Virus record (IMG/VR): IMGVR_UViG_2541047847_000004
Direction: 5' to 3' (one strand)
Source of the DNA: a virus
Taxonomy: Duplodnaviria > Heunggongvirae > Uroviricota > Caudoviricetes
DNA length: 54,394 bases
Shown here piece by piece: positions 3,028 through 3,852 of this stretch (position 1 is its first letter; each line of letters opens with the position of its first letter). The notes below the pieces were generated by a model, which saw only the letters and a program-made list of their open reading frames with translations, did no database searches and was not told the origin of the DNA. Position numbers and translations under genes: made by a program.

Positions 3028-3852
3028 TTGCAATGTTCATTAATATACGTCTCACAAATAATTCATAGATATTGCAAAATGGATATTACTGAGTTTCCTT
3101 CTGGAGTAATTGAACACCTTGGCTGGTATGTATACCGATTGATTGATCCGAGGGACGGAAGCACCTTCTATGTAGGGAAAGGCAAAGGTAACCGCGTATT
3201 TGCCCATATGCGCGGTGAAGTGGCAGCGACTGATGATGACGAGTTACTGAGCAACAAGCTAAAGCAAATTAGAGAAATAAGGTTAGCAGGACTTGAAGTT
3301 ATCCATGTCATCCATCGACACGGAATGACTGATGAAAAGACGGCGTACGAAGTTGAAGCTGCACTTATTGATGCCTACCCTGGGTTAACGAATATCATGA
3401 ATGGTGCTGGCAGCAATGAATTCGGCGCCGCGCATGTCAAAGAGTTGATAGCAACATATCAACCCGAAACCATAACATTTCATCATAAAGCATTAATGAT
3501 TTCCGTTAACAGAAGTGCAAAGGATTCAGAGCTTTATGATGCGGTTCGATTTAGCTGGCGCATTAATGTCTCTCGCGCCAGCCAAGCAGAAGTCATTCTT
3601 GCTACTGTAAGGGGAATCGTTCGAGGGGTTTTCATTGCTGATAAATGGCTCAAATCAACACGTGAAAATTTCCCTACGATGAAATACTGGGACGAGGATC
3701 CTGACTTTGAGGCAACACAAAGTTCTCGCTATGGTTTTGAAGGCCGAGAAGCCCCACCTGAAATAGCAAATCTTTATCTTGGAAAAAAAATACCAGATGA
3801 ATTAAGAAAAAAAGGAGCTATGTCCCCGGTCCGTTACTCACCTAATTTTTGA
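3028..3852 (+). CDS. GIY-YIG domain protein (putative nuclease)
   Basis: N-terminal WYVYRL-x9[14 protein letters not shown] fits the GIY-(x10)-YIG nuclease motif with the conserved Arg. Start uncertain (alternative ATG at 3079). Confidence 0.5.

Follow-up and report, generated by a model that had tools for sequence, protein, structure and literature searches.

A GIY-YIG gene beside the pin invertase gene of an e14/CPS-53-like prophage is identified as CMoRE (PD-T4-3), a known restriction enzyme for hydroxymethylated phage DNA

We examined a GIY-YIG gene near the left end of a 54,394-nucleotide stretch of Caudoviricetes DNA (IMG/VR record IMGVR_UViG_2541047847_000004; hereafter the window) and identified it, with near certainty, as encoding CMoRE (PD-T4-3), a single-protein restriction enzyme that acts on phage DNA containing 5-hydroxymethylcytosine (5hmC) or glucosyl-5hmC (5ghmC). 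The coordinates of the gene, its domains, and its neighbors are collected in Table 1. The protein matched the PADLOC model of PD-T4-3 (PDLC04031) with E 2.4e-140, residues 1-256 aligning to model positions 1-255/256, and it matched PHROG 5356 over its full length (E 2e-143). A sequence search of the PDB found 253 of 257 residues identical to entries 9U75 and 9U8D, which carry the title [quoted passage not shown] and also matched 9U7U and 9U7Z. The exact protein is common in E. coli (cluster P0001, 1045 members). NCBIfam held no family for it, and a megablast search of sequenced phages returned no near-identical copy of the gene.

The original prediction took the gene for a defense gene, as the family match to PD-T4-3 and published phage-protection experiments bear out. 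It also suggested an unassigned defense nuclease, a description overtaken by the literature: PD-T4-3 has been renamed CMoRE (Liu et al., Nat Commun 2026; PMC12923530), and its functional selection, native-host confirmation, purification, and crystals are all published. The gene is therefore a real defense gene that is already known, and nothing we found contradicts the identity. Its annotation can be set to CMoRE/PD-T4-3, whose mechanism is known, and this closes the finding for the genome scan.

The limits of the protein needed one correction. The open reading frame (ORF) first reported, 274 amino acids counted from a TTG codon on the + strand (3028..3852), is present in the window, and its GIY-YIG signature was recovered by a Pfam search, in which PF22945 (LEM-3_GIY-YIG) scored 54 bits against a cut-off of 27 (E 2.4e-14); the classic PF01541 model reached 13.7 bits, under its own cut-off. 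The start, on the other hand, was very probably placed 17 codons too early. The RefSeq coding sequence of the same gene (WP_000355484.1, 774 nucleotides) begins at an ATG at window position 3079, the PADLOC and PHROG models place their position 1 on the methionine encoded there, and the residue numbers of the structure paper (Y17, Y19, Y31, R80, V92, L96, and Y127) match only when counted from it. Because these three lines of evidence agree, the product is a 257-residue protein, and the first 17 codons of the longer frame are very probably not translated.

Much is known about this enzyme. Expressed as a single gene from its native promoter, it reduced T2, T4, and T6 plating about 10^5-fold without abortive infection, and T4(C) escaped it while T4(hmC) did not (PMC12923530). 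The purified protein degraded 5hmC and 5ghmC DNA and neither cut nor bound DNA with cytosine or 5-methylcytosine (5mC); cleavage followed the pattern CN11/N9G, left 2-nt 3' overhangs, and required two 5hmC sites (PMC12923530). CMoRE is a tetramer, a dimer of dimers, in which the N-terminal GIY-YIG domain carries an extra tyrosine (GIYxY-YIG) and a 15-residue acidic loop, inserted between helices alpha2 and alpha3, lies over the active site as an autoinhibitory lid; the 4A mutant, in which the loop is neutralized, cuts ordinary DNA and is toxic (PMC12923530). At the C-terminal domain, 5hm-dCTP was bound with its 5-hydroxyl hydrogen-bonded to Y127's main-chain oxygen (PMC12923530). Modification dependence is supported by two other groups: a 48%-identical homologue cut T4 DNA, left T4-GT7 DNA intact, and at high concentrations acted on Mu DNA as well (PMC12366544), and deletion of the gene from a clinical isolate sensitized it to Tevenvirinae phages, additively with a restriction-modification (R-M) island (PMC12409345).

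The copy in the window retains the parts that these experiments single out. Y17, Y19, Y31, R39, R80, V92, L96, and Y127 are all in place, and when 40 homologues with identities as low as 53% were aligned, Y17, Y19, Y31, R39, E93, N105, and Y127 were invariant. From their invariance, R39 and E93 would form the catalytic pair. The differences from 9U75 (T51A, E55D, Q167K, and N197H, window residue first) touch no residue named in the paper, and the loop remains acidic, reading T-D-D-D-E where the O157:H7 enzyme has A-D-D-D-D. This loop may be flexible, a property that would fit the low predicted local distance difference test values at residues 50-53 of the predicted model. The window protein has the length and architecture of the CMoRE proteins of O157:H7 (9U75, 9U8D) and APEC O1 (9U7U, 9U7Z) and of the one first found in ECOR68. 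With the O157:H7 enzyme it shares the GIYxY-YIG motif, the acidic loop, the oligomer-interface residues, Y127, and a position adjacent to pinE; the two loci differ in that the window copy is joined to an EcoRII-type R-M pair and the O157:H7 copy adjoins an AraC-family gene instead.

The mechanism was shown experimentally for a protein with 4 differences in 257 residues, and we infer it for the window copy because of this identity and because every functional residue named in the paper is conserved. The C-terminal domain would bind DNA with 5hmC or 5ghmC, as found in T-even phages, and a dimer inside the tetramer would read two modified cytosines about 21 bp apart. The N-terminal GIY-YIG domains would then cut between both cytosines with the published pattern and overhangs. 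The host chromosome should remain uncut because the acidic loop would exclude ordinary and 5mC DNA from the active site, and host CCWGG sites that are C5-methylated by the adjoining EcoRII methylase would likewise be spared. Defense would be direct rather than by abortive infection.

This reading of the window copy carries four caveats. Its exact allele, with T51, E55, Q167, and N197 in place of A, D, K, and H, is known by sequence, and two of these changes fall in or beside the autoinhibitory loop, which stays acidic. In APEC O1, the orthologue showed only weak activity when driven by its own promoter (PMC12923530). Specificity may also be wider than 5hmC and 5ghmC, because the 48%-identical homologue acts on Mu DNA, which carries a modified adenine. 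Finally, a consensus scan called no + strand sigma-70 promoter at threshold upstream of the gene, so that expression in the lysogen is assumed. The last point, together with the frequent degradation of prophages of this kind (as in EDL933, Sakai Sp1, and K-12 e14), could also mean that the prophage is decaying and the gene has been left inactive or silent, which we consider very unlikely. The frame is intact and identical to a cluster of over a thousand members, all catalytic and sensing residues are retained, and the O157:H7 copy was active on its native promoter despite coming from a degraded prophage (PMC12923530). The prophage in the window, moreover, looks largely complete from its tail genes to its integrase. 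We are thus highly confident that this is an active CMoRE, with activity and lysogen expression judged from its sequence.

GIY-YIG domains are also found in selfish elements, and the gene might encode an I-TevI- or Seg-type homing endonuclease rather than a defense enzyme. A weak match to a PHROG family of homing endonucleases (phrog_314, E 0.0021), the annotation of jumbo-phage homologues as "putative homing nuclease," and the sharp homology boundaries of the cassette would fit such an origin. The phrog_314 match, however, is limited to the catalytic domain; Pfam found no NUMOD, zinc-finger, or helix-turn-helix module, and the C-terminal domain is the 5hmC sensor of the crystal structure. Experiments also showed cleavage that is modification-dependent and largely independent of sequence, along with strong phage defense, and we give the homing alternative almost no credence. 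The type II enzymes with a GIY-YIG domain (Eco29kI, Hpy188I) and the homing endonuclease I-TevI act on unmodified targets and have neither the extra GIYxY tyrosine nor an acidic lid or a modification sensor.

The homologues in question were the only ones that tblastn found in phages, at 38-45% identity and all in jumbo phages. These phages are lytic, with genomes of about 255-285 kb, and their CMoRE homologues are full-length and annotated as homing or GIY-YIG endonucleases, as in Serratia phage Moabite (6406-7161) and Pseudomonas phage OBP (158703-159449). The homologues might serve as weapons against hmC-containing phages that infect the same cell.

Among other enzymes for modified cytosine, the type IV enzymes PvuRts1I and AbaSI have a cut geometry close to that of CMoRE, at roughly N11-13/N9-10 between a pair of modified cytosines some 21-23 bp apart. 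Both they and CMoRE consist of two domains, a nuclease and a sensor. They share the substrate class 5hmC/5ghmC (PMC12923530). The combination that defines PvuRts1I and AbaSI, a Vsr-like PD-(D/E)XK nuclease with an SRA-like sensor, is absent from CMoRE. EVE-HNH (VcaM4I) and the other type IV enzymes with PUA sensors have an HNH nuclease where CMoRE has GIY-YIG, with no detectable sequence similarity; unlike the sites of such enzymes, the published 5hm-dCTP site of CMoRE lies at the domain edge and not in a pocket (PMC12923530). McrA (EcoKMcrA) of the K-12 prophage e14 resembles CMoRE in being a single-protein type IV enzyme for modified cytosine in a slot beside pinE at the prophage end, but the proteins are unrelated, McrA being an HNH nuclease. 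McrA acts on 5mC and 5hmC DNA and would conflict with an adjacent Dcm-type methylase. Unlike McrA, CMoRE ignores 5mC (PMC12923530).

The direct adjacency of CMoRE to the EcoRII-type endonuclease and methyltransferase genes raises the question of whether that system needs it to function, as a third component such as an accessory nuclease or controller. This idea, also offered in the original prediction, is favored by the contiguous three-gene block, which is 98.7-100% identical in 244 complete E. coli genomes. Over 5426 complete E. coli genomes, 994 matched any part of the block from 1 to 3909 and 244 matched it at >=80% coverage; the CMoRE region by itself (2720..3909, 1.19 kb) was matched in 881 genomes, 808 of them at >=80% coverage. 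Co-occurrence was thus limited to 244 of about 808-881 genomes, and about 70% of the genomes with CMoRE carry it without the R-M pair beside it. There, the upstream neighbor is instead retron Ec67, hypothetical proteins, or an AraC-family regulator, the last in O157:H7 EDL933 and Sakai, in O157:H16 Santai, and on a 64-kb plasmid. CMoRE is absent from the plasmid EcoRII systems, which are about 80% identical. The gene also defends when cloned alone, and all 274 of the 274 systems listed by DefenseFinder are single-gene (PMC12923530). Its substrates, hmC and ghmC DNA, are unrelated to the unmodified CCWGG of EcoRII, and an obligate role in the R-M system appears extremely improbable.

Because its upstream neighbors vary while the cassette stays constant, and because plasmid EcoRII systems do without it, CMoRE is an independent cassette of about 1 kb. 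Homology among loci with other upstream neighbors begins sharply at window position 2870, 2883, or 2886. The R-M pair and CMoRE can nevertheless travel as one cargo block between prophage types, since E. coli D5 carries the same block in a different prophage. In that strain, ssrA immediately precedes the block (locus L003, 4282-8138), which closes off a lambda-like prophage without pin. The two systems would be complementary, with EcoRII acting against unmodified CCWGG and CMoRE attacking the hmC or ghmC DNA of T-even phages that escapes EcoRII. CMoRE can tolerate the neighboring methylase because it was shown experimentally to ignore 5mC (PMC12923530). The left end of the window reads as an ordinary region of stacked defense cargo.

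Table 1. Features at the left end of the window, with coordinates, strand, and basis
Feature	Position	Strand	Basis
EcoRII-type endonuclease	1..1209	+	Pfam EcoRII-N, EcoRII-C; PADLOC REase_II; RefSeq
C5 methyltransferase (Dcm-type)	1244..2677 (RefSeq) or to 2719	-	Pfam DNA_methylase, DNA_meth_N
R-M pair, neighboring yet separable	1..2719	.	Pfam, PADLOC, genome counts
Upstream non-coding DNA, kept with the gene in every genomic context	2886..3078	+	homology limits among E. coli loci
In-frame TTG extension; most likely untranslated leader or promoter DNA	3028..3078	+	models, RefSeq, published numbering
CMoRE/PD-T4-3 coding sequence	3079..3852	+	PADLOC PDLC04031, PDB 9U75 identity, RefSeq WP_000355484.1
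GIY-YIG portion with GIYxY-YIG motif (Y17, Y19, Y31); invariant R39, E93, N105	3079..3414	+	
Acidic loop T51-D52-D53-D54-E55	3229..3243	+	sequence, alignment to 9U75
C-terminal modification-sensing domain, about residues 113-257, including Y127	3415..3849	+	
Hairpin between convergent CMoRE and pin genes, 12-bp stem	3876..3909	.	predicted folding
pinE-type serine invertase of the prophage tail-fiber switch	3910..4464	-	Pfam Resolvase, HTH_7

The C-terminal part of the protein had been described as free of any nameable motif, and Pfam indeed found none there; its function, on the other hand, is published as a modification-sensing domain (PMC12923530). Sequence and structure searches in that study found no homologues for the domain, which was called a distinct fold (PMC12923530). 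Our searches agree as far as sequence relatives go: with 40 family members and E-values up to 10, Pfam gave no match to EVE (PF01878), YTH, or ASCH, and a profile of the domain searched against all PDB sequences found only CMoRE itself. A fold comparison of the domain listed PUA-like readers (family and list value in brackets), namely THYN1 bound to 5mC DNA (5j3e; EVE, 5.5), YTHDC1 and Mmi1 (YTH, 5.4), the restriction enzyme VcaM4I (6yex; EVE-HNH, 5.4), a Zymomonas ASCH protein (5guq; ASCH, 5.3), PH1033 (1wmm; EVE, 5.1), and the N-terminal domain of S. marinus McrB (6n0s; YTH-like, 4.9), and it continued with more YTH, ASCH, and EVE entries and the N-terminal domain of T. gammatolerans McrB. 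We tentatively propose, as a possibility somewhat short of an even chance, that the 5hmC sensor is a very divergent PUA-like reader of the EVE/YTH/ASCH type, which would place CMoRE in the large class of type IV enzymes that join a PUA-like sensor to a nuclease, here with a GIY-YIG partner. If so, a flipped base might be read in the canonical barrel pocket, possibly lined by the invariant W160, W190, Y153, F198, and Y233, and not at the edge site that held free 5hm-dCTP. Such a relationship would tie CMoRE to the EVE/YTH/SRA readers and suggest where the true base-binding pocket may lie, which would be relevant if the enzyme were made into a tool for 5hmC mapping.

On its other side, CMoRE faces the Pin-type invertase gene, so that the placement between an R-M pair and pin given in the original prediction holds (Pfam, RefSeq). 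The pinE gene lay beside CMoRE in 8 of the 9 E. coli loci inspected; in the exception, strain D5, only a tail-fiber remnant follows. To the right of pin come the invertible tail-fiber segment and then the rest of an e14/CPS-53-like prophage, with genes for baseplate, tail, head, lysis, and early functions and an integrase at 37723-38895. Within the invertible segment (4491-6053), alternative tail-fiber C-termini and assembly genes face each other, at 4491-5641 (+) and 5613-6053 (-), in the usual host-range switch of the e14, Mu, and P1 type. The earlier description of the site as a defense-cargo slot is consistent with K-12 e14, where the equivalent slot directly beside pinE (locus L007, 6686-8180) holds mcrA, an unrelated type IV enzyme for modified cytosine. 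Unrelated type IV enzymes therefore take turns in the pinE-adjacent slot of e14-like prophages, with mcrA there in K-12 and CMoRE in the window.

The edges of the cassette carry candidate expression signals and possible traces of its movement. The conserved non-coding DNA upstream of the gene presumably holds its own promoter, in keeping with the defense obtained from the native promoter (PMC12923530). Downstream, the CMoRE and pin genes converge, with stop codons at 3852 and 3910, around a hairpin with predicted folding energies of -17.4 kcal/mol (+ strand) and -23.6 kcal/mol (- strand). It is probably a two-way terminator, although a simple terminator scan called no canonical terminator there, and the hairpin is defined by folding; its only resemblance is to the CssrB terminator stem in Rfam (32 bits, under the gathering score). 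The left junction at 2869-2890 (GCATACAACGTGCCTGCGGTTT) nearly duplicates the hairpin loop and right arm at 3889-3909, with 19 identities in 22 columns and one gap. This repeat was found by gapped alignment, a gapless repeat search having missed it, and its score was reached by 0 of 4981 random 50-mers from the window.

A second possible trace is tRNA-like. Just upstream of the conserved CMoRE block, EDL933 (locus L002, 6960-7038) has half of a class-II Ser-like tRNA, namely its 3' half, which scored 27.5 bits with the tRNA-Sec model, below the Rfam threshold. The window keeps only a piece resembling the anticodon arm at about 2883-2905 (GCGGTTTTTGAGACCGGTCCG), and the conserved block appears to begin within that arm. 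Neither the window nor five related loci yielded an intact tRNA in a tRNA search. The tRNA-like remnant may be an old attachment site, and together with the cassette-edge repeat it looks like a scar of the recombination by which cargo beside pin was moved or exchanged. Pin/hix-like sites flanking the cassette were considered and set aside, as the candidate GGTTTTTGA at 2887-2895 is better explained as the tRNA-Ser-like anticodon-arm remnant.

The right end of the window contains a further junction between mobile elements. Between the prophage integrase and a second, satellite integrase (41126-42319), the interval 38887-40757 holds two - strand ORFs as cargo at the junction of the two elements. 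The product of one, 205 amino acids long, had no family match and no PADLOC match; the other, of 303 amino acids, had only a sub-threshold HATPase_c_2 match and likewise none in PADLOC. What looks to be a P4-like satellite is represented by Ash (48051-48695) and a primase-helicase (49894-52227), and the chromosomal gene csiD follows at 53417. Directly after the second integrase come genes for a SIR2-domain protein (42327-43445) and for a HerA-type ATPase (43424-45205; PADLOC HerA, E 1e-192). These genes (42327-45205) are the known SIR2-HerA defense pair, which lies in DNA of low guanine-cytosine content (30-32%) at the integrase end of the probable satellite.
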